Positions 1,156 to 20,978 of a stretch of 31,853 bases of DNA are shown piece after piece. This DNA comes from Candidatus Thorarchaeota archaeon SMTZ1-45 (GTDB lineage: Archaea > Asgardarchaeota > Thorarchaeia > Thorarchaeales > Thorarchaeaceae): contig LRSL01000106.1 in assembly GCA_001563335.1 (NCBI GenBank), positions 1 to 31,853 of the forward strand, read 5' to 3'. Under the pieces are notes generated by a model. That model had not been told where the DNA came from and searched no databases. It saw only the letters and a program-made list of their open reading frames with translations. The translations under genes and the position numbers were made by a program. Every line of letters begins with the position of its first letter. The first letter of the stretch is position 1.

Positions 1156-2220
1156 TTATTTTTCGTAGAAGTATTTACCCTTAGAGTAAATTATTTCATT
1201 ACCTGCAATGATTTCCCCATCATGCATTCTCTTAATCATGTCAACATGTATTGCACTGTCATTGACGCCATTGCATTCAGGAAAAGCCATGCCTAAGGCA
1301 CAGTGGACAGTATCACCAAGTTTCTCATCGAATAGAATATTCATCGTATAATGTTTGATACCACGATTTGTGCCTATAGCCATCTCACCAAGGCGGCGAG
1401 CCCCATCATCAATCTCAAGAATCTGTTTCAATGTTGATTCCTCCTTTTCTGCGGAGAAGTCAACAACCTCCCCTTTCTCGAATTTTAAGCGAACTCCTTC
1501 GATTACTTTACCTTGTTCAAGGAATGGAACATCAAAGTAGATTTTTCCTTCGACTGTATCCTCTACGGGAGCTGTGAACACCTCGCCATCTGGCATGTTG
1601 AACTTGCCATCTGCTGCTATCCAGATTCTACTTTCAGTTGATGCATAGAGATCGGTTTCTGGTCCACAGAACCGGATATCCTTGTGACTCTCGAGATGTT
1701 CTTTCATCATGTACAGATTTTTGCTCTCTTTCTCCCAGTCATGAAGACATGCATCATAGACGAAGTCACGATACTCTTCCAAGCTCATATTACCCTGTTG
1801 TGCAAGAGTTGCACTTGGATGAACAGTCAAAACCCATCTCTTTTTTGTAATAAGATCAAATATTGGTTTGGTAGTTTTTGCAGTTATCATTATCCTCTTA
1901 GGATCAACATTTGCCAAGGCTTTGGTGTTAACGGGGGATCTCAGGACAATGTAGACATCTGTTTTCTCCGCCATTGCCATAAGATGATCAGGAAAAACCT
2001 CCAGAGTTGCGTCATCTGCTCCATCATATTTAGCTCGATCAATTTCCTCGCTTATCATCATTGTAACTGAGCTACCGCCAGCTTTTGCAACCTGTCGTGC
2101 GACAGCGACAGCAAGTTCATGTGCATCTGGGTTGGCTTGAATGACAACCATGTCCCCTCTTTTTACCTCTGTACTATAATCAACAAGTATCTTTGCGTGT
2201 TCGACAATTCTAGAGTCCAA
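1156..2220 (-). CDS. M29 (AmpS/AmpT-like) metallo-aminopeptidase, copy 1
   Basis: Motifs NMPDGEVFTAP, LGEMAIG, LFDEK, HCALG, SAIHVD; TTG start preceded by AGGAGA. Confidence 0.92.
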   Translation of the reverse strand: MDSRIVEHAKILVDYSTEVKRGDMVVIQANPDAHELAVAVARQVAKAGGSSVTMMISEEIDRAKYDGADDATLEVFPDHLMAMAEKTDVYIVLRSPVNTKALANVDPKRIMITAKTTKPIFDLITKKRWVLTVHPSATLAQQGNMSLEEYRDFVYDACLHDWEKESKNLYMMKEHLESHKDIRFCGPETDLYASTESRIWIAADGKFNMPDGEVFTAPVEDTVEGKIYFDVPFLEQGKVIEGVRLKFEKGEVVDFSAEKEESTLKQILEIDDGARRLGEMAIGTNRGIKHYTMNILFDEKLGDTVHCALGMAFPECNGVNDSAIHVDMIKRMHDGEIIAGNEIIYSKGKYFYEK

Positions 2221-2243
2221 TGTAATAATCTCCTTTTTTTAGT

Positions 2244-3308
2244 CTACATCTCGTAGAAGTATCTGCCCTTGCTGTAGATCAATTCATCACCAGCGATTAT
2301 CTCTCCCTCGTGCATGGTCTTGATCATGTCAACGTGAACTGCAGACTCATTTGTTCCATTATTATCCTTGTAGGCGCGACCCAATGCACAATGAACAGTA
2401 TCTCCTATTTTTTCATCGAAGAGCATGTTTAGAGTGTATTGCCTGATACCTCGGTTAGTGCCGATAGCCATCTCCCCAAGTCGTCGAGACCCTTCATCAA
2501 CCTCAATAATTTCTTTCAGTGTTGCTTCAGCCTTTTCAGCAGAGAAATTCACAACTTCCCCCTTTTCGAATGTCAAGCGAACTCCCTCAATTACCTTACC
2601 CTGCTGCAAGAATGGTATATCAAAGTAGATTTTGCCTTCCACAGTATCCTCAACTGGAGCTGTGAAGACTTCACCACTAGGCATGTTATGTTTACCATCG
2701 GATGCTATCCATATTCTGCCTTCAGTTGATGCATATAGATCCGTTTCAGGACCTGTGAATCGAATATCCTTATGACGTTCAAGGTGGTCTTTCATTTTGT
2801 ATAAGAGTTTACTCTCCTCCTTCCAATCTAGAAGAGTGGCATCATACATGAAGTTCTGATACTCATCCATGCTCATGTCAGCTTGTTGCGCCAATGCATT
2901 TGTAGGATGAACTGTTAAGCACCATCTTTTCGAAAGATAGAGCTCCATCACTCTCTTCATAGCAATACTACGTTGAATCACTCGTTTTGGATCAACACTA
3001 GCCATTGCCTTCGTATTGCTTGGCGATCTAACTGCTATAACAACATCGACTTTCTCAAGAAGAGCCTCAAATTGTTTTGGCGCTATACTTATTGTTTCAT
3101 CGTCTGCGCCATCAAAGAAGGCTCTATCCATTTCCTCTGTACTCATCAGAGTAATGGGCACAGCCCCTTTTTCTGCGATTTTTTTATAGAGGGCAACTAC
3201 AAAGTCATGAGAATCTGGGGTGGCTCGTATTCCTACTAAGTCACCTTTCTTCACCTCAGTGCTCCATTCAACAACAATTCGAGCATGTTCTTCAATGCGT
3301 GGATCCAT
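2244..3308 (-). CDS. M29 (AmpS/AmpT-like) metallo-aminopeptidase, copy 2
   Basis: Motifs NMPSGEVFTAP, LGEMAIG, LFDEK, HCALGRAY, SAVHVD; colinear paralog of copy 1. Confidence 0.93.
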   Translation of the reverse strand: MDPRIEEHARIVVEWSTEVKKGDLVGIRATPDSHDFVVALYKKIAEKGAVPITLMSTEEMDRAFFDGADDETISIAPKQFEALLEKVDVVIAVRSPSNTKAMASVDPKRVIQRSIAMKRVMELYLSKRWCLTVHPTNALAQQADMSMDEYQNFMYDATLLDWKEESKLLYKMKDHLERHKDIRFTGPETDLYASTEGRIWIASDGKHNMPSGEVFTAPVEDTVEGKIYFDIPFLQQGKVIEGVRLTFEKGEVVNFSAEKAEATLKEIIEVDEGSRRLGEMAIGTNRGIRQYTLNMLFDEKIGDTVHCALGRAYKDNNGTNESAVHVDMIKTMHEGEIIAGDELIYSKGRYFYEM

Positions 3309-3490: not shown

Positions 3491-4498
3491 TTGCAGCGAG
3501 AGAATGATAATGCTTTAGATGCTTCTGATATGATTCTTAAACTTCCGAAAGGAGAAACCGCTTCGATTGCATGGTCCCTATCAGAACCGGTTTTACTTAT
3601 CGGAATGAATGATGGTAGTGTAAGTTTAATCAAATCCGCAAGGGAGCTCAAGCTCGAAAAACCACATAACAAAGCTATCTCTGCTGTCCAGTGGAATCAT
3701 AATGGTGAGATGTTTGCCACAGCTGACCGAATTGGTTCGATAGTGCTTTGGACGAATCAGCGTATTACTTCAGTCTTGAAAGGTCATAAGAAAATTGTTT
3801 ATGATCTTTCCTGGAATCCCAAGTCTGATATTCTTGCCGCTTCATCAGGTGACAAAACAGGTTCCATCTGGGCTATGGAGGATAATATGACTGAGCTATC
3901 TGGTCACAAAGGCGCTGTAACTGTGATTGATTGGAACTCCTCGGGAACACATGTTGCTACTGGTTCTGCAGATAAAACGGTTAGAGTATGGACAACAGAA
4001 GGCAGACAAGAACAAGTACTTGAACATAAGGGAGCTCTAGCTTCTCTGATTTGGAATCCTATAGAAGATGAACTCCTCGCCACAGGTTCTTACGACAAAA
4101 CTGTCCAGCTCTGGAGAGCAGGAAAATCCACCTCTTTGATGAAGGGTCACAGAGACCGTGTTTTTGGACTTGACTGGAATAAAGATGGAAAACTATTGGC
4201 TTCATCTAGTGGTTTCAAAGATGGAGAAATCATAGTTTGGAACGATTCGGGTGAGAAAGTTGCAACCTTTGAAAATCACACGAGTAGCGTCTATCAGGTA
4301 AGTTGGAATCCAATTAGTGACATGTTAGCCTCAGCATCCTTTGATGGAACAGTAAGAATCTGGAGCATGGAAGGAGAACAAGCTGTTTTTAGACATCCCG
4401 GACCTGTATTTGCCGCTAAATGGAACAATAAAGGGAATCTCCTTGCAACAGCTGGCATGGGTATTGTTGCTATCTGGAATGTCACCAAATTCTCTTGA
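3491..4498 (+). CDS. WD40-repeat beta-propeller protein
   Basis: About 7 repeats of GH...V..L.WN....LA(T/S)(G/A)S.D.TV..W; start may be ATG at 3530. Confidence 0.93.
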   Translation: MQRENDNALDASDMILKLPKGETASIAWSLSEPVLLIGMNDGSVSLIKSARELKLEKPHNKAISAVQWNHNGEMFATADRIGSIVLWTNQRITSVLKGHKKIVYDLSWNPKSDILAASSGDKTGSIWAMEDNMTELSGHKGAVTVIDWNSSGTHVATGSADKTVRVWTTEGRQEQVLEHKGALASLIWNPIEDELLATGSYDKTVQLWRAGKSTSLMKGHRDRVFGLDWNKDGKLLASSSGFKDGEIIVWNDSGEKVATFENHTSSVYQVSWNPISDMLASASFDGTVRIWSMEGEQAVFRHPGPVFAAKWNNKGNLLATAGMGIVAIWNVTKFS

Positions 4499-5074: not shown

Positions 5075-6364
5075 ATGACCACGATGGACATAGCAGGTTT
5101 CCTTATAGTTATCATTTTGATAGTCACCTTAGTGGTTGTCCTATCAGAGAGGATTAATGAAACCGCTACAGTTCTATTTGCGATGTCTCTTGCTGGAGCC
5201 ATCTTATGGTTTGCCTATGGATTTACATTCCGCGAGTTTGTTCTTCTAATGGAATGGGATACCATTCTCTTTGTCACTGCTATGCTAATTGTGGTAGCTA
5301 TAGCTGCATCATCAGGTATGTTTCAATACATCGCATTGGTTTTGTTGAAGGGGACTCAAGGCGAACCAAAGAAGATCTTTGTTACCTTCATGGGTTTTGT
5401 TTTTGTAATCTCACTATTCCTTGATCCACTACCGACGATGTTAGTAATGGGCGTGTTCACTGTTGAAGTATGTAAAGTAATCGACCTTGATTTTAGACCC
5501 ATTCTAATATCAGAAGTTATAGTGGCTAACTTTGCTTCAATACCTTCGTTTGTCGGGTCTATTCCGAATCTTGTTATCGCTGTTTGGGCAGAAACTGATG
5601 TCGCGCTCCTGGCAATCGTGTTATTCCCTTTGTCAATCATTCTATTCATTGTGACACTTTTTATTCTAATTAGATGGTATGGACCCGAACTAGACGCTGA
5701 GATCTGTTCGGATTGGAATCTACTCTATATGGTCAAGCCTAGTATTATGATAAAATCAAGACATGATTTCTACCTCTCGATAATAGCTATGAGCATCTTA
5801 GTGCTGGGTTTTACAATTGGTGCGTTGAGAGTTGAGGCATCACTAATTGCCATGATGGTTGCTTCTGCTATGCTGGTTTTTTCTCATGAACGCGCAGAAA
5901 AACTAGTTAGACAATTGTCATGGGGAACGATTTTCTTCCTTGTTGGGCTTTTTGGGCTAGTCGCCGCACTGGAAAGATCCGGTGTCATTGATGAGTTCGT
6001 TAGTGGTATTACTGGACTTATCGGAAATAACATTTTCCTAGGAATGAGTTTTCTTATTTGGATTCCTGGCTTTTTCCTGTCAGTTATTGATAATGTACCA
6101 ATTGCTGCATTACTAGCTCCACTTGGACAAAGTCTTGGTGCCACAAATGCTGTGGTGCCTTTGACCCTATTCATCGGAATCAATGTTGGTGGGTATATGA
6201 TACCATTTGGAGATGCACCAAACATGATTGCAGTTACACAAGCCAAAGAAGGAGGTCGTCCAATCAGTTTCCTTGAATTTACAAGAGTGGCGCTACCTAT
6301 AGGATTTATTCATCTGATTATCAGTACAATCTATTCCTTTCTAGTCGCATTAATGTTCGTGTAA
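5075..6364 (+). CDS. ArsB/NhaD/SLC13 (IT superfamily) ion/carboxylate permease
   Basis: About 12 TM helices; ANFAS...GSIPNLVI, IDNVP and NVGGY..PFGDAPN hairpin motifs; internal duplication (MEWDTILF / LSWGTIFF). Confidence 0.85.
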   Translation: MTTMDIAGFLIVIILIVTLVVVLSERINETATVLFAMSLAGAILWFAYGFTFREFVLLMEWDTILFVTAMLIVVAIAASSGMFQYIALVLLKGTQGEPKKIFVTFMGFVFVISLFLDPLPTMLVMGVFTVEVCKVIDLDFRPILISEVIVANFASIPSFVGSIPNLVIAVWAETDVALLAIVLFPLSIILFIVTLFILIRWYGPELDAEICSDWNLLYMVKPSIMIKSRHDFYLSIIAMSILVLGFTIGALRVEASLIAMMVASAMLVFSHERAEKLVRQLSWGTIFFLVGLFGLVAALERSGVIDEFVSGITGLIGNNIFLGMSFLIWIPGFFLSVIDNVPIAALLAPLGQSLGATNAVVPLTLFIGINVGGYMIPFGDAPNMIAVTQAKEGGRPISFLEFTRVALPIGFIHLIISTIYSFLVALMFV

Positions 6365-6424: not shown

Positions 6425-6919
6425 TTGACTATGTTCGAAGTAATGACTGCTGCATTAAAGAACTCGATCAATGGACAACATATTCATGTTGATCCCATTG
6501 CAGCTCTGCAAAATCTAACTTATGAAATGGCATCAGAGATACCTGGGAATGGGGAGCATTCTTGCTGGCATATATTGTATCACATTGTGTTTTGGCAAGA
6601 TCTCATGCTCGAAGCACTGAGAGGAAAAGAGGATGTGAGTTGGCCCAAGAACAATGAACCAAGTTGGCCAAATGAATTGCCCCAAGACAACAAGAAATGG
6701 GATGAGCTTGTTCAAAGGTTCAAACTAGGCATTGAAGAGGCATATCAGTCTACAGAGAATATTGAATCCCTTGAGGATTTACCCTCTTGGCCTAAGGTCC
6801 CTGTTTTCAGAGCTTTGATGGTCCTTGGACAACACAATGCTTACCATATTGGTGAGATTGTAGCCACACGACAAGCTTTGGGTTTTTGGCCACCCTCGCC
6901 AGATCATAAAACCTTCTAA
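6425..6919 (+). CDS. DinB/YfiT superfamily protein
   Basis: HSCWHILYH..FWQ and HNAYHIGEI His-triad motifs; start may be ATG at 6431. Confidence 0.88.
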   Translation: MTMFEVMTAALKNSINGQHIHVDPIAALQNLTYEMASEIPGNGEHSCWHILYHIVFWQDLMLEALRGKEDVSWPKNNEPSWPNELPQDNKKWDELVQRFKLGIEEAYQSTENIESLEDLPSWPKVPVFRALMVLGQHNAYHIGEIVATRQALGFWPPSPDHKTF

Positions 6920-9306
6920 TTTGAGGAGCGTGTCACCCGAACTAGAACTGAATTGAACCCAGGTGTATGACCGAACGCAGTATGATGGTCCTTCGTTAAG
7001 AGATTGATGTTACCATCATCTTCCCACCATCCGTCTGATGACCAAACCACTCTAGGGTCAATATCTGAAGTCAAGATGAGTTTCATGTTCTTCACAATCC
7101 CTCTTTTGGATTCAACATCAACTCTATCCCCTTCCCTCAACCCATACTCCTCTGCTGTCTGAGGGTGCATTTGTAAGAATGCTCTATGCTTACCTTTTTC
7201 GTGCCTATTTGTCATCTTAATGGGTTCGGTAACTACATCATATGGACAAACATCTATAGCACACTCTCGACAACCAATACATTTCGTTACATCCCAAATT
7301 GGTACAAGGAGCCCTGTTATTTCTATAGGAATGTCGAGCATTTCGTCAGTCACATGAATCGCCAATCCTCCAACAAGCTCTCCAAGTTTCCTTCTGAGTA
7401 TTGCTTGGTCTTGAGGTGCATCTTTTGCATAGCGTTGAATAATATTGGTGCTAGGCTGTGTTAAGGCGATAGCCTCATCAGGACACTCTTCGACACATTT
7501 CTTGCAGGTTGTGCAATGTGCATAGCTTTTGACTGTACCTCCGACTTCCACTGTGGTATACTGGGAATGCAAACGCTCTCGCAATCGACCAGTTATCATA
7601 ATCAGGGGATAGTTTTCAAACACCTTGGGAGTTGAACGCGGACTCTCAAGGGGTTCTTCATGAAATGGAAGCGGGTCCAAACCTTGGTTTTCAAGCTCTG
7701 AGCAGTAGAGCTGAACCTTTCCAGTTCTTGTCTTGAATTTTCTGTCTGCAAACGGTATGCTTGGACTTTTAGTCCTCATACCTTCTGGTCTTTTTATCAA
7801 GTCCTCCAACAAAATGTTTTTGCAGTCCTCACTTTGGAGTGCCTGCCTAATCGCATCTAGTTCTGTAAGCTGGAAATACTCACTAATGCCTGCTCTTGCA
7901 GCAATACCCTTCCAGATATCCAGCTCACTTCTAGATTCGCCAAGAGGTTCAACAAGTTTTGGTGCATACTGCACAATTCTGTGCAATTCTGAGTGCACAA
8001 GATTATGGTGCTCGAAAATAAAGGTGGCAGGAAGGACGATGTCACAAAGTCGTGCTGTATCAGTCATCTCAAGATCGATGCACACTTTGAAAGGTATCTT
8101 TTCCAATGCTTCTTTTACCTTCTTTGTATTTGGCCACTGAGTCATTGGGCTTGCTGCTTGAATTACAAAGACCTTGAAAGGACTTTCATCGTGACGCAGT
8201 ATGTAATCCGGCACATATGTTCCGGAAGGAACAGCAGGCTTCATTGAAGGGTCAAGAAGCTCAGGAAGTGCTACAGCTGCTCCGTTGAATGGACTATTAT
8301 CTGAGGAAAGATACTGAAACCCCCCTCCAGAAACTCCCAAGTATCCGCAAATTGCTAATAGACTATGAACAGCTCTGGCTGCCCAAGTTCCATTGGTGTA
8401 GTGATTCATTCCTGCAGGAGCTGTTGTGATTAAAGCTGGTCCATGGGTTGCTATGACAGTAGCTAATTCTCTAATAGTGCTCTCCTTAACCCAGGTGATT
8501 TCACTTACTCTCTTGGTATCGTACTCAGATACTCGTGCAGTATACTCTGCAAACCCGTGAACATGTTTCTTCACAAACTCATGGTCATAGAGACCTCTCC
8601 TGATGATCTCATTTGATATTCCTAGAGCTAGAGCACCATCAGTTCCTGGTCGTATGGTTGTATAAAGATCCGCGGCCTTTGCATAGGGTGTTTTTCTTGG
8701 GTCGATGACAATCAACTTGGCACCATTGTCAATAGCTTCTTGGATGACTCTTTTGCAATGAATGCTTGACTCAAACTTGTTAGTTCCCCAGATGATAATA
8801 CACTTTGAGTTCGCCCAGTCTTGGAGCTCATGTGGAGGAAATGGTCCTACGTTAAATCTAGCTCCCTCATATGCACCTTCAAAACATATCTCTGTGATTC
8901 CAGGAATCATTCTGCATCCAAACGCATTTGAAAACCTGGCGGCATAGCGAGGTGCCATTCCATCATTACCTGAACCTGAATAGATTCCAACACTTTGTGG
9001 TCCATACTGTTTTCTTGCTTCTCTCATGTGTTGGGCAATTTCATCAAAAGCCTCCTCCCACGGGATTTTGATGAATGTTCCATCAGGTTGTTTTCTTTGT
9101 GGATAGAGTAATCTATCATCATAATACATTCTCAAAACGTGTGCGTATCCTTTTGGACAACATCTTCCTAAAGTATAGGGATGGTTTGGGTCTCCCTCTA
9201 TCCTTGTTATCCTTCCATCCTCAATATGTACTATGTAAGCACAAATGTCTGGACAGTTCAACGCACAGGCTGAATATTGCTTCTCTTTTGCCATTAGCAG
9301 ACTCAT
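6916..9306 (-). CDS. Mo/W-bisPGD (DMSO reductase family) oxidoreductase with inserted 2x[4Fe-4S] ferredoxin domain
   Basis: N-terminal CALNCPDIC...CCPKG Fe-S motif; VIDPRKT, IRPGTDGALALG, TDTARLCDIVLPA, YPLIMITGR...LHSQ, MHPQTAEEYGLREGDRV..ESKRG; two extra CxxCxxCx3-4CP motifs. Confidence 0.92.
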   Translation of the reverse strand: MSLLMAKEKQYSACALNCPDICAYIVHIEDGRITRIEGDPNHPYTLGRCCPKGYAHVLRMYYDDRLLYPQRKQPDGTFIKIPWEEAFDEIAQHMREARKQYGPQSVGIYSGSGNDGMAPRYAARFSNAFGCRMIPGITEICFEGAYEGARFNVGPFPPHELQDWANSKCIIIWGTNKFESSIHCKRVIQEAIDNGAKLIVIDPRKTPYAKAADLYTTIRPGTDGALALGISNEIIRRGLYDHEFVKKHVHGFAEYTARVSEYDTKRVSEITWVKESTIRELATVIATHGPALITTAPAGMNHYTNGTWAARAVHSLLAICGYLGVSGGGFQYLSSDNSPFNGAAVALPELLDPSMKPAVPSGTYVPDYILRHDESPFKVFVIQAASPMTQWPNTKKVKEALEKIPFKVCIDLEMTDTARLCDIVLPATFIFEHHNLVHSELHRIVQYAPKLVEPLGESRSELDIWKGIAARAGISEYFQLTELDAIRQALQSEDCKNILLEDLIKRPEGMRTKSPSIPFADRKFKTRTGKVQLYCSELENQGLDPLPFHEEPLESPRSTPKVFENYPLIMITGRLRERLHSQYTTVEVGGTVKSYAHCTTCKKCVEECPDEAIALTQPSTNIIQRYAKDAPQDQAILRRKLGELVGGLAIHVTDEMLDIPIEITGLLVPIWDVTKCIGCRECAIDVCPYDVVTEPIKMTNRHEKGKHRAFLQMHPQTAEEYGLREGDRVDVESKRGIVKNMKLILTSDIDPRVVWSSDGWWEDDGNINLLTKDHHTAFGHTPGFNSVLVRVTRSSN

Positions 9307-9405: not shown

Positions 9406-10080
9406 GTGAAAAGAATGTCAAAAACAGACAGACAATCAACTGAGTTCCTCCCCTCTACCTATCTAGCAGTCCTGTCAATTCTTGGCGGAGGGGCTGAGTA
9501 TGGCTACGAAGTCAACAACATCATTGAACAGTATGGTTTCAGAGAATGGGTCGAGCTAAGATTCTCTTCAGTCTATAAGGCATTATCAGAACTTGAAAAG
9601 CGTGGTCTAATTGTAGGTAAAAAGGAAGACTATGAAAAAAAGACATCAAAGAAGACTTATCGTTTGACAAGTAAGGGTCGAACTACCCTTCAGCAGCAAA
9701 TTAAGATGTGTTTGAGTAATCCTCCACGACCAAAAACACTGTTTGACTTGGGAGTTTCAGCTATGAGCCTGATAACTCGAAGAGAGGCACTAGATGCTTT
9801 ACGGACATACAAGACAAACCTTGAACGAGGTCTACAGTTTTTGGAGTTGAATGTTCAGAACTTGGACAACTTGGAGCGTTTGAAACGAGAAGCCCCAGAA
9901 AGTATGGTTGGTTTGGTCACTGTTGATGAGTATGAAAACACTGAGAACATTGGTGCAGTTCGAGCTTTATTTGACCGTCCAGCAATTTCCGTTCGTTGTC
10001 AGATTGCTTGGCTTGGATCCTTTATCAAACAAATAGAACGCGGGGAAGGTTTCACTTTCAGTGATACCAGTAGGAGGTGA
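9406..10080 (+). CDS. PadR-family transcriptional regulator with long C-terminal domain
   Basis: YGYEV...SSVYKALSELEKRGLI...KKTYRLTSKGR winged-helix signature; start may be ATG at 9415. Confidence 0.92.
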   Translation: MKRMSKTDRQSTEFLPSTYLAVLSILGGGAEYGYEVNNIIEQYGFREWVELRFSSVYKALSELEKRGLIVGKKEDYEKKTSKKTYRLTSKGRTTLQQQIKMCLSNPPRPKTLFDLGVSAMSLITRREALDALRTYKTNLERGLQFLELNVQNLDNLERLKREAPESMVGLVTVDEYENTENIGAVRALFDRPAISVRCQIAWLGSFIKQIERGEGFTFSDTSRR

Positions 10081-19050: not shown

Positions 19051-19098
19051 TTGCGTAGAAGGAAACCACTATTCAATATACTATTGTTGGTACTAAGT

Positions 19099-20013
19099 AT
19101 GATCAAGGAAATTGAATTCGATAAAATAGATGATATAGCTCCAATTCTCGATCTTTATAGAGAACGTTATGGTGAAAACTCGTTAGCTGAGAATTTTATA
19201 GAGCAAATTAAGACCTCAGTTTCGAATGACAAAACCAGTCTTTTTGGTACATATGACAAGAACGAAATCTTGAAGGGAATTGGATTTTTTGGAAAAGCAA
19301 GTGCTAGGATCTTACTTGTTTTTGCAGATGGTAATATGGATCTTGAAAAGGAACTACTCGGTGCACTCTGCAACCGATTCCAAAAGGAATATTCACACAT
19401 TGCTACTGGTGGGGCTTGGATACCTTGGATATCTGCTCCACTTTCTCAACATCTTATTGAAATTGGTTTTGTAAAATATGACAGAGCTCATATGACACTA
19501 GATAAGAATGCAATTGAGGAATTGGACGAACCTATTCTTCCAGCTGGAATGAGTTTTGAAGTCTATTCTAGGTCAAACCGTAATGAGATATCTGAGTTAA
19601 TTTTCAGGGGCAACGATGGGAGTGTGGATCAAGATGTATTTCCGGATTTCTTTGGCTCTCTAGAGAATTGCATGAAAATGGTTGAAGATATTGAGGGAGA
19701 TAGATATGGTGAATACAAAGATGGTTCATCTTGGATTTTGAGGTTTGATTGTGTTATTATTGGCGCTTGCTTTATGACTTGCATGGATGGAGCCACTGGA
19801 TATATTCCTGATATTGTAATAGAACCTGAACATCGTGGCAAAGGATTAGGAAGAGCACTCCTTATTCATTCAATGAAGCGACAGATTGAATCTAATACAA
19901 CCATATGTAAGACTGATCTTGATGTCACGTTTAGTAATACTGCTCGATATCTATACGAGTCGCTTGGATTCTCAACTGTCGAAGAATATGCGATGTATAC
20001 TTTAAAGAGCTAA
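19099..20013 (+). CDS. GNAT acetyltransferase (tandem-domain size), copy 1
   Basis: PEHRGKGLGRALL motif A, N.ARYLYESLGF; ATG at 19099 preferred over TTG at 19051. Confidence 0.85.
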   Translation: MIKEIEFDKIDDIAPILDLYRERYGENSLAENFIEQIKTSVSNDKTSLFGTYDKNEILKGIGFFGKASARILLVFADGNMDLEKELLGALCNRFQKEYSHIATGGAWIPWISAPLSQHLIEIGFVKYDRAHMTLDKNAIEELDEPILPAGMSFEVYSRSNRNEISELIFRGNDGSVDQDVFPDFFGSLENCMKMVEDIEGDRYGEYKDGSSWILRFDCVIIGACFMTCMDGATGYIPDIVIEPEHRGKGLGRALLIHSMKRQIESNTTICKTDLDVTFSNTARYLYESLGFSTVEEYAMYTLKS

Positions 20014-20054
20014 TTTAGGAATCATTGATTTAGGGGACGGACATTGGGAGTAGC

Positions 20055-20978
20055 ATGGCACGAGTGCTCATTGCAGAGGATCTTGATGAATTTGACCTTT
20101 TGATACAGCAATACATCAATCACATTGCAGACCCACAGCTCACAGTAGAGAAACTCAAGCAACAATTAAAGCAATCAATGGAAAAAGATTCTAGATATGT
20201 TCTAGGTGCTTATGACCAAGATAACAAGGCACTTGGTTTACTAATACACAACCCAAACTTCAATCGCTCGTCACTCATTTTTGCCAATTCTGATTTCTTA
20301 GTCGAGAAAGATCTATTCGACAAGATGTTTGGAGAATTCTCAGGAATATCACCAACCATCATTCTTGATTCAGGATATCCCAAACCTTGGATTTCGTCTG
20401 AATTTTCAGAGTATGCTATTTCATTGGGATTCAAGAAACATGACCGACGCTTCATGATACTGGAACGACTTGAATCAATGGTTTATCATGATCTGCCTGA
20501 AGGATTTCATTTCACTCCCTTTTCAGAATTGGAAATTGAAGATGTGACTAAAATGGTATTCCAAAGTGTTGATGGTTCCACAGATCAAGACCTCTTCCCC
20601 TATGTCTATGGTTCTTTTGACACTACTTTAAGATTCCATAAGCGAGTCATTGCAGGTGATTTTGGAATTCACAAGCCATCATTTTCATGGATTCTGAAAA
20701 GAGGTGATGATTGCATTGGTGCTTGTTTCATAACCACGAGTGGAGAATATACAGGACATTTGATGCATCTAGCTATATTACCAGATTTTAGACAAAGAGG
20801 TCTGGGCAAGAATCTACTTCTTCATTCACTTCATAATCTGTTCGTAGTAGAACCAAATCTAAAGAAGGTTGACCTTGCTGTAACTCTAGATAATCCTGCT
20901 AGACATCTATACAAATCAATAGGATTTAAGAGAGTAAATGATATGTCAACATTTGTCTGGAAGAAGCAAAATCAATAA
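20055..20978 (+). CDS. GNAT acetyltransferase (tandem-domain size), copy 2
   Basis: PDFRQRGLGKNLL, NPARHLYKSIGF; shares DGS.DQD.FP, SWIL and IGACF with copy 1. Confidence 0.87.
   Translation: MARVLIAEDLDEFDLLIQQYINHIADPQLTVEKLKQQLKQSMEKDSRYVLGAYDQDNKALGLLIHNPNFNRSSLIFANSDFLVEKDLFDKMFGEFSGISPTIILDSGYPKPWISSEFSEYAISLGFKKHDRRFMILERLESMVYHDLPEGFHFTPFSELEIEDVTKMVFQSVDGSTDQDLFPYVYGSFDTTLRFHKRVIAGDFGIHKPSFSWILKRGDDCIGACFITTSGEYTGHLMHLAILPDFRQRGLGKNLLLHSLHNLFVVEPNLKKVDLAVTLDNPARHLYKSIGFKRVNDMSTFVWKKQNQ

Follow-up and report, generated by a model that had tools for sequence, protein, structure and literature searches.

Contig LRSL01000106.1 of Candidatus Thorarchaeota archaeon SMTZ1-45, analyzed over its whole stretch of 31,853 nt (the window), encodes on the minus strand a 796-residue protein that we call MopB-Fd (open reading frame 6916..9306, stop codon included). 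MopB-Fd has the hallmarks of the catalytic subunit of a Mo/W-bisPGD enzyme, i.e., one with molybdenum or tungsten held by two pyranopterin guanine dinucleotides (MopB, the DMSO-reductase family), and its domain IV is interrupted by a 112-residue, long-linker dicluster domain of the ferredoxin type. With moderate confidence, and by analogy with its relatives, we read MopB-Fd as a self-wired cytoplasmic Mo/W enzyme in which the inserted clusters would replace the small Fe-S subunit found in those relatives. A ferredoxin-type dicluster module interrupting domain IV had been proposed from the letters of the window (the original prediction), and the split Pfam match, the alignment and the conserved Cys residues bear this out.

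MopB enzymes rank among the most thoroughly studied redox catalysts, and the electron wires known for them are separate subunits or terminal fusions. A dicluster domain in a loop of domain IV, which caps the cofactor, would be a different way to build a single-chain, self-wired catalyst. Our literature searches on ferredoxin insertion into domain IV found no description of it, and no inserted ferredoxin is mentioned in the portions at hand of a 2023 survey of MopB enzymes (PMC10100899).

The dicluster domain inside domain IV

MopB-Fd contains three Pfam domains of the family, and all of its features given below lie on the minus strand. Conservation was read from an alignment of 91 rows, which holds 31 members of the clade that carries the insertion and the 60 best representatives from outside it. 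The first domain is Molybdop_Fe4S4 (PF04879; residues 11-61, 41 bits), with the [4Fe-4S] motif of cluster FS0, C14-x3-C18-x3-C22 ... C50 (CALNCPDIC ... CCPKG, 9157..9267). This motif is present in the clade, and its four Cys residues are kept in at least 90% of the aligned sequences. The second is Molybdopterin (PF00384; 161.6 bits, E 3.4e-47, above the cut-off), which covers domains II and III, the binding domains for molybdopterin guanine dinucleotide (MGD; residues 65-470, 7897..9114). The Cys of ITEICFEG, singled out early as the likely metal ligand, is Cys141 (8884..8886). It is invariant in all 91 sequences, pairs in the alignment with the Cys that binds tungsten in acetylene hydratase 2e7z ('MYMCIGN'), and is the likely Mo/W ligand also in MopB-Fd. 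Cofactor positions that are near-invariant in the relatives are kept as well (W173 G174 N176, D202 P203, P220 G221 D223, T415 T417 and N768). Because C141 and these classical MGD-contact positions are retained, MopB-Fd looks, at the level of its sequence, like a cofactor-binding enzyme.

The third domain, Molydop_binding (PF01568), is domain IV, and it is in two pieces. The N-terminal piece (YPLIMITGR..RLHSQYTTVEVGG, residues 566-591, 7534..7611) lies 5' of the insertion and was delimited by alignment. Its YPLIMITGR..RLHSQY (residues 566-583) is the start of domain IV upstream of the insert, and the piece matches the first strand and the HSQ segment in 60/60 relatives. The C-terminal piece (residues 702-787, 6946..7203) matches PF01568 with 74.2 bits (E 1.1e-20), which is above the cut-off, and covers positions 22-109 of the 110 in the profile. 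In the relatives, about 20 residues lead from the HSQ segment to the 'IHP..A..GI..GD' segment, in agreement with the short distance that the original prediction had assumed for other enzymes of the family. The insertion, delimited by the 91-row alignment and by Fer4_9, comprises residues 592-703 (7198..7533). It is present in 31/31 clade rows and has a counterpart in 0/60 relatives. A Molydop_binding domain split by a Fer4 domain was the expected outcome of a Pfam scan, and the scan gave this arrangement with Fer4_9 inside (residues 597-690, 27.8 bits vs. a cut-off of 27). The other Fer4 models stayed below their cut-offs, and Fer4_11, the family of the beta subunits of complex iron-sulfur molybdoenzymes (CISM), had no Pfam match in MopB-Fd.

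The insertion carries two Cys motifs. Motif 1, CTTCKKCVEECP (C598-x2-C601-x2-C604-x3-C608-P609, residues 598-609, 7480..7515), has canonical spacing. Motif 2, CIGCRECAIDVCP (C676-x2-C679-x2-C682-x4-C687-P688, residues 676-688, 7243..7281), reads CxxCxxCxxxxCP throughout the clade, i.e., with x4 before the last Cys, one residue over the canonical x3. The motifs had previously been placed at 7483-7515 and 7246-7281; the upper ends stand and the lower ends are displaced, each within one codon. The linker, estimated at about 65 aa, has 67 residues between C608 and C676. Through C598/601/604/608 and C676/679/682/687, the insert should bind two more [4Fe-4S] clusters.

A word-indexed search found >110 full-length orthologues of ~790 aa with 66-86% identity, and where these are named, nearly all are from Thorarchaeota. 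Both Cys motifs are present in 130/132 clade sequences, the two exceptions being fragments (593 and 657 aa) that are truncated at the C-terminus. The eight Cys residues of the insert are invariant in 22 genomes, though the insert is only 48-72% identical overall, and this pattern of motif conservation is far beyond chance. A tree calculated without the insertion columns unites all 31 carriers in a single clade (support 1.0, stem 0.80), and the sequences thus indicate that the insertion arose once. A homologue search combined with a MopB phylogeny had been suggested as a check of the architecture, and its outcome is the same insertion throughout one clade. Among 1.84 billion representatives, an exhaustive search returned the clade as one full-length 50% cluster and two fragments. 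The best match outside the clade scored 464 bits, as compared with 1294 bits within it, and was matched in two stretches (38% identity, 699 aa). We also used a phylum sample of 201 genomes, with 43 other genomes of the Thorarchaeial family of the window and 157 genomes of 26 other families. The MopB-Fd gene is found in 25/43 of the former and in 0/157 of the latter.

An AlphaFold model of MopB-Fd, built from the 91-row alignment, has a mean local confidence (pLDDT) of 90.2 and a template-modelling score (pTM) of 0.89. In this model of the whole protein, the insert runs as a strand, the motif-1 helix, a strand, two linker helices, a strand, motif 2 and a strand. The modelled order would fit a (beta-alpha-beta)x2 ferredoxin core with a helical excursion. 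The body of the protein superposes on FdhH, other formate dehydrogenases, Nap and acetylene hydratase.

Insertion-free relatives and the proposed electron relay

In MopB-Fd, no Pfam match to TAT_signal (twin-arginine translocation) was found at E<=0.1, and the first FS0 Cys is already residue 14. TAT_signal was matched in two of the insertion-free relatives, P0160 and P0268. No gene for an Fe-S, NrfD-type or cytochrome subunit was found near MopB-Fd in the window, and the picture is the same in 21 orthologous loci (together with the window's own these make 22 loci, eleven of them with 1.5-kb flanks only). Both the lack of a TAT signal and the lack of beta or gamma subunit genes nearby had been anticipated. 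From the absence of a signal peptide and of nearby subunit genes, MopB-Fd is read as a cytoplasmic and, by gene order, single-subunit enzyme.

The insertion-free relatives were examined in 15 loci found from protein P0147, in metagenome-assembled genomes (MAGs) of Bathyarchaeota, Dehalococcoidia and Deltaproteobacteria. In 5/15 of these loci, a Fer4 protein of 105-134 aa starts 1-12 nt after the stop codon of the MopB gene. This mini subunit is a two-cluster protein with eight to ten Cys and weak matches of the HydN/ArrB/DmsB type; it resembles the insert in size and in its eight or more Cys. Two relatives have a Fer4_11 domain fused to a terminus, C-terminal in P0148 and N-terminal in P0185, and Molydop_binding is intact in each. 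This branch of MopB does use small Fe-S partners, and the Thorarchaeial clade instead carries, within the chain, a module of similar size.

Two further observations were made on the insertion-free relatives. In a Bathyarchaeota MAG (L027:4989-9897), there are two tandem MopB genes (696 and 692 aa), each followed by a small Fer4 subunit (105 and 134 aa). Protein P0240 (720 aa) has a PlsY-type glycerol-3-phosphate acyltransferase domain before FS0 and Molybdopterin, and no Molydop_binding match; a fused gene call or a truncated record is the probable cause.

Because some relatives encode an adjacent two-cluster subunit and two carry terminal Fer4_11 fusions, a built-in electron relay is our best reading of the insertion. 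According to this proposal, the 112-residue domain would have been spliced into a surface loop after the HSQ segment of domain IV, and its two clusters would lengthen the wire from FS0 as far as the protein surface. A redox partner, such as a ferredoxin or a redox complex, could then exchange electrons with the Mo/W centre without a separate Fe-S subunit. The extra clusters would relay to FS0 as they do in CISM with a separate four-cluster beta subunit (PsrAB, DmsAB, FdnGH, ArrAB). However, the CISM beta subunits and the mini subunits of the relatives are separate polypeptides, or terminal fusions as in P0148 and P0185, of the Fer4_11/HydN type, while the module of MopB-Fd is in-chain. ActB of alternative complex III and the NasA-type assimilatory nitrate reductases also combine a MopB module with terminal Fe-S domains in one chain. 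Their extra domains are at the chain end, whereas that of MopB-Fd is inside domain IV; ESM Atlas matches of the ActB/NasA kind reached only 0.79-0.80. If the relay works as proposed, MopB-Fd would be a compact template for engineered self-wired Mo/W catalysts, and would give access to a redox reaction in the cytoplasm of the archaea most closely related to eukaryotes.

Several results weigh against the relay. The x4 spacing of motif 2 is non-canonical for a [4Fe-4S] ferredoxin motif. The structure model is weakest exactly at both Cys motifs: the means of 10-residue blocks in the insert range over 47-86, with the lowest values at 601-610 (58), 671-680 (58) and 681-690 (47), and pLDDT is <50 for residues 678-686. 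Low values at the Cys motifs would be expected in a model without clusters, yet they leave the fold of the insert unproven. When the insert was folded alone (22 sequences), the mean pLDDT was 53.2, which is unusable. The mini subunit was found in only 5/15 loci of the relatives, so the partner subunit is not universal. We also considered homology between the insert and the mini subunit and rejected it, as hhalign gave 37% and an 18-column match to the motif only. Because the insert has no detectable homology to the mini subunit, the parallel between them is best taken as functional analogy and not as genealogy. The last point concerns cofactor supply. MoaA (Mob_synth_C), MoaC, MoaE, MoeA_N, WtpA and ModA had no match in the organism's own genome, which is 87.7% complete, and neither MoaC nor MoeA was found in 15/23 sampled carriers of MopB-Fd (two fragments included in the 23), several of which are 95-97% complete.

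The missing pathway can be compared with the pterin-dependent enzymes of the same organisms. The own genome has 10 genes of the aldehyde:ferredoxin oxidoreductase (AOR) family and 2-3 MopB-type matches, two of them strong and one weak, of FwdB size, at 20 bits. Across 45 genomes of the family, MoaC was found in 12 and MoeA was found in 14, their occurrence being coherent by genus, while 4-13 AOR matches were found in 45/45 and MopB matches in 41/45. MoaA was not found in five high-quality genomes that carry MopB-Fd. Since genomes without the pathway also keep genes for AORs and for MopB proteins resembling formate dehydrogenase (FDH), the gap characterises the organisms rather than the MopB-Fd protein. 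This suggests cofactor scavenging or another, unrecognised pterin pathway. Our literature searches found no paper whose accessible text addresses pterin-dependent enzymes without a pterin pathway in Thorarchaeia. For the physiology and cultivation of Asgard archaea, this pairing of many pterin-dependent enzymes with no detectable pterin pathway could be as important as the insertion itself.

Kinship of the insert and other readings of the enzyme

When a profile of the insert from 22 genomes was run against the organism's own genome, one further match was found (E 1.1e-10). The match lies in the N-terminal half of Fer4-MvhD, a protein of 304 aa encoded at C77:16015-16929 on another contig. This protein has an N-terminal long-linker dicluster domain and a C-terminal MvhD/FlpD half, the latter with a Pfam match to FlpD (5.8e-36) and matches to solved MvhD chains of heterodisulfide reductase (Hdr) complexes (9sw2_D, 3.6e-33; 7bkb_F, 1.5e-30). 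A BLASTP alignment of the insert with the N-terminal domain runs collinearly over 112 residues, linker included, at 29% identity (E 2e-9), and the profile-profile comparison by hhalign gave 97.2% (E 3.8e-11, 97 columns). Both have two motifs, a helical linker of ~65 residues and a 'V/I-P-x-x-x-x-G' element before motif 2. Unlike the insert, the domain of Fer4-MvhD is fused to an MvhD [2Fe-2S] domain, is encoded among hdrA/B/C genes and has the canonical x3 in motif 2. It is the only homologue of the insert detected outside the clade. On the basis of these sequence comparisons, the insert is a lineage-specific long-linker dicluster domain, probably recruited within Thorarchaeia, or the transfer may have gone in the opposite direction. 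With its restriction to one family and its kinship to an Hdr/MvhD domain, the insertion would be a dated and traceable case of domain recruitment.

Two other routes to the origin of the insert were tried and rejected. A stand-alone donor was sought by word search with residues 588-706, and the matches (72 of 166 candidates of near length and 16 of 68 shorter ones) were all MopB-Fd family members or fragments with PF00384 and/or PF01568. The donor-like Fer4-MvhD came to light only through the profile run on the own genome. A circular permutation relative to NuoI-type proteins was considered from apparently swapped halves. It was discarded, as Fer4-MvhD repeats the unit 'helix - VPE..G - Cys motif' twice, and either half of the insert matches the NuoI-type halves because this unit occurs twice. 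In the ESM Atlas, residues 560-796 of MopB-Fd and residues 1-150 of Fer4-MvhD had best matches of 0.80 and 0.89, respectively, to generic Fer4 or ActB-like clusters, which we regard as leads only.

The Fer4-MvhD gene belongs to an Hdr cluster of eight genes on the minus strand of its contig (C77:12571-21625, locus L046:3572-12626). Genes 1-4 encode an HdrC-like protein (191 aa), an HdrB-like CCG protein (314 aa), an FAD/Fer4 oxidoreductase (421 aa) and an HdrA-MvhD fusion (653 aa). Genes 5-8 encode the long-linker Fer4-MvhD (304 aa), HdrA (676 aa), an HdrC-like protein (160 aa) and an HdrB-like protein (302 aa). Fer4-MvhD hence sits between two HdrA-type genes, and HdrB-like and HdrC-like genes flank both sides. 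In the phylum sample, the protein is found in 10/43 genomes of the family of the window and in 0/157 elsewhere. In two genomes of the family, a stand-alone MvhD gene lies directly upstream of an FDH-like MopB gene of 675-677 aa (G027:C40:111240-113075 and G093:C32:23146-24981). Such an arrangement suggests that formate dehydrogenase, MvhD and Hdr are linked in Thorarchaeia as they are in methanogens.

This kinship gives rise to another reading, in which the insert mainly docks or wires MopB-Fd to the bifurcating HdrA/MvhD machinery, and the enzyme is a substrate-specific input or output module that does not work with free ferredoxin. It would account for the only homologue outside the clade being a domain of a protein encoded amid Hdr genes, and for MopB-Fd and Fer4-MvhD both being confined, in the phylum sample, to the same archaeal family. 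The MvhD genes beside FDH-like MopB genes in G027 and G093 add that MopB-MvhD coupling exists in the family. However, MopB-Fd and Fer4-MvhD do not co-occur: of 9 sampled genomes with full-length Fer4-MvhD, 4 have MopB-Fd and 5 do not, and full-length Fer4-MvhD is present in only 4/23 MopB-Fd genomes. No hdr or mvhD gene adjoins MopB-Fd in the 22 loci, and common ancestry of a domain does not show a common partner. We therefore regard this reading as unlikely. A bolder form is a little less likely again. Here, the insert is a copy of the MvhD/HdrA adaptor by which the enzyme plugs into a bifurcating Hdr complex, coupling its substrate to bifurcation and running on scavenged pterin, the last part being proposed because most carrier genomes are without the Mo/W-cofactor pathway.

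The active site of MopB-Fd bears on a reading without redox catalysis. By structure, the best superposition is with formate dehydrogenase H of E. coli (PDB 1fdi; Z 39.1, rmsd 2.5, 643 residues aligned), and the best NCBIfam match is the FDH family TIGR01591, yet with 288.3 bits vs. a cut-off of 666.25. Formate dehydrogenases have selenocysteine or Cys followed by His at the active site. MopB-Fd instead reads C141-F142 at the ligand Cys, and the FDH enzymes are without an inserted ferredoxin. Among the 25 best NCBIfam matches listed for MopB equivalogs (NasC, PhsA, DmsA, NapA, ArrA and others), none reaches its cut-off. By sequence, the closest solved relative is acetylene hydratase of Pelobacter acetylenicus (PDB 2e7z; E 1.9e-56, Z 36.6, 28% identity). 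Like MopB-Fd, it works in the cytoplasm as a single subunit that has an FS0 cluster and, at the aligned position, a Cys as metal ligand. It differs in lacking the insertion in domain IV, and the C-x3-C-x3-C spacing of FS0 in MopB-Fd is a further difference. In the phmmer alignment (chain index +3 = literature numbering), its W179, W293 and W472 correspond to a gap, Thr and Leu in MopB-Fd. These three Trp residues form the hydrophobic substrate ring of acetylene hydratase, with Asp13 beside an FS0 Cys. Asp13 has no clear equivalent, as the Asp found between C18 and C22 of MopB-Fd, D20, is one position off. Judging by these active-site residues, the substrate is probably neither acetylene nor formate.

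Asgard enzymes of the MopB superfamily have also been noted in the literature. According to the MopB survey, Asgard MAGs hold seven homologues of the 'AH family', and some Cys-coordinating lineages without a name have best matches that are AH-like or PsrA-like (PMC10100899). A 'thiosulfate reductase' reported for Thorarchaeota, as mentioned in a review (PMC6646929), could be MopB-Fd or another enzyme.

Acetylene hydratase needs a strong reductant for activity. MopB-Fd could accordingly be imagined as a non-redox, acetylene-hydratase-like enzyme whose clusters only keep the metal reduced (reductive activation) or sense the redox state. The closest solved relative by sequence would support this, and so would three loci of insertion-free relatives (L028, L029 and L035, in Dehalococcoidales and Deltaproteobacteria MAGs), which adjoin genes for AOR and/or Fe-alcohol dehydrogenase, a context that would fit an aldehyde-forming, hydratase-like reaction. 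We give this reading only a small chance, given that the three ring Trp are not kept, Asp13 is without a clear equivalent, and the fused Fer4_11 domains or mini subunits of the relatives point to redox catalysis in the group.

A smaller chance still is given to a cofactor-less, MopB-like iron-sulfur protein (as NuoG, QrcB and ActB), which would have lost Mo/W-bisPGD and serve in pure electron transfer. The pathway gap is what speaks for it, i.e., MoaA, MoaC, MoaE and MoeA not found in the own genome, MoaC and MoeA both unfound in 15/23 carriers, and MoaA not found in the five high-quality ones. Against this, the protein retains the classical MGD-binding positions along with the invariant C141, and the same pathway-less genomes keep FDH-like MopB genes and 4-13 AOR genes.

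An assembly or gene-calling artefact, or a chimeric contig, is practically negligible: the N-terminal border of the insert is spanned solely by contigs of run X1, possibly the source of this DNA, and 7546-7872 is not reached by any contig of the independent runs X2, X3 and X4, but a 688-nt contig from an independent study (X2) spans 6853-7540 with 2 differences, taking in almost all of the insert and its C-terminal border, and >130 sequences from many sources and 25 further genomes carry the same architecture. Because many independent assemblies share it, misassembly is excluded. The doubts that accompanied the original prediction, namely an architecture already common in characterised MopB enzymes, unconserved Cys residues and misassembly at the borders, have not materialised.

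Gene neighbourhood

The genes next to MopB-Fd were compared across the 22 orthologous loci. A gene of the DinB_2 family (Pfam; 6425..6919, plus strand) is convergent with MopB-Fd, with the stop codons overlapping by 4 nt, and occurs in the flank of 11/22 loci. Next to it is a permease of the CitMHS/ArsB type (ion-transporter superfamily; 5075..6364, plus strand; Pfam CitMHS, 1.3e-44), for which NCBIfam gives weak MamN/ArsB/DASS matches and which is found in the flank of 7/22 loci. In several genera, the permease (sometimes in two copies) and/or DinB_2 converge on the 3' end of MopB-Fd (L008, L017, L020, L021, L024 and L025). As a lead only, the permease is a possible carrier of the substrate or product and hints that the substrate of MopB-Fd is an anion. 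Upstream, a divergent gene for a PadR-family regulator (Pfam; 9406..10080, plus strand) is adjacent to MopB-Fd in 4/12 loci, i.e., the window's own and three others.

Elsewhere in the window, there are two tandem M29 aminopeptidase genes (1156-3308, minus strand) and a gene for a 335-aa WD40 beta-propeller protein with eukaryote-like profile matches (3491-4498, plus strand). Two tandem GNAT acetyltransferase genes lie at 19051-20978 on the plus strand.

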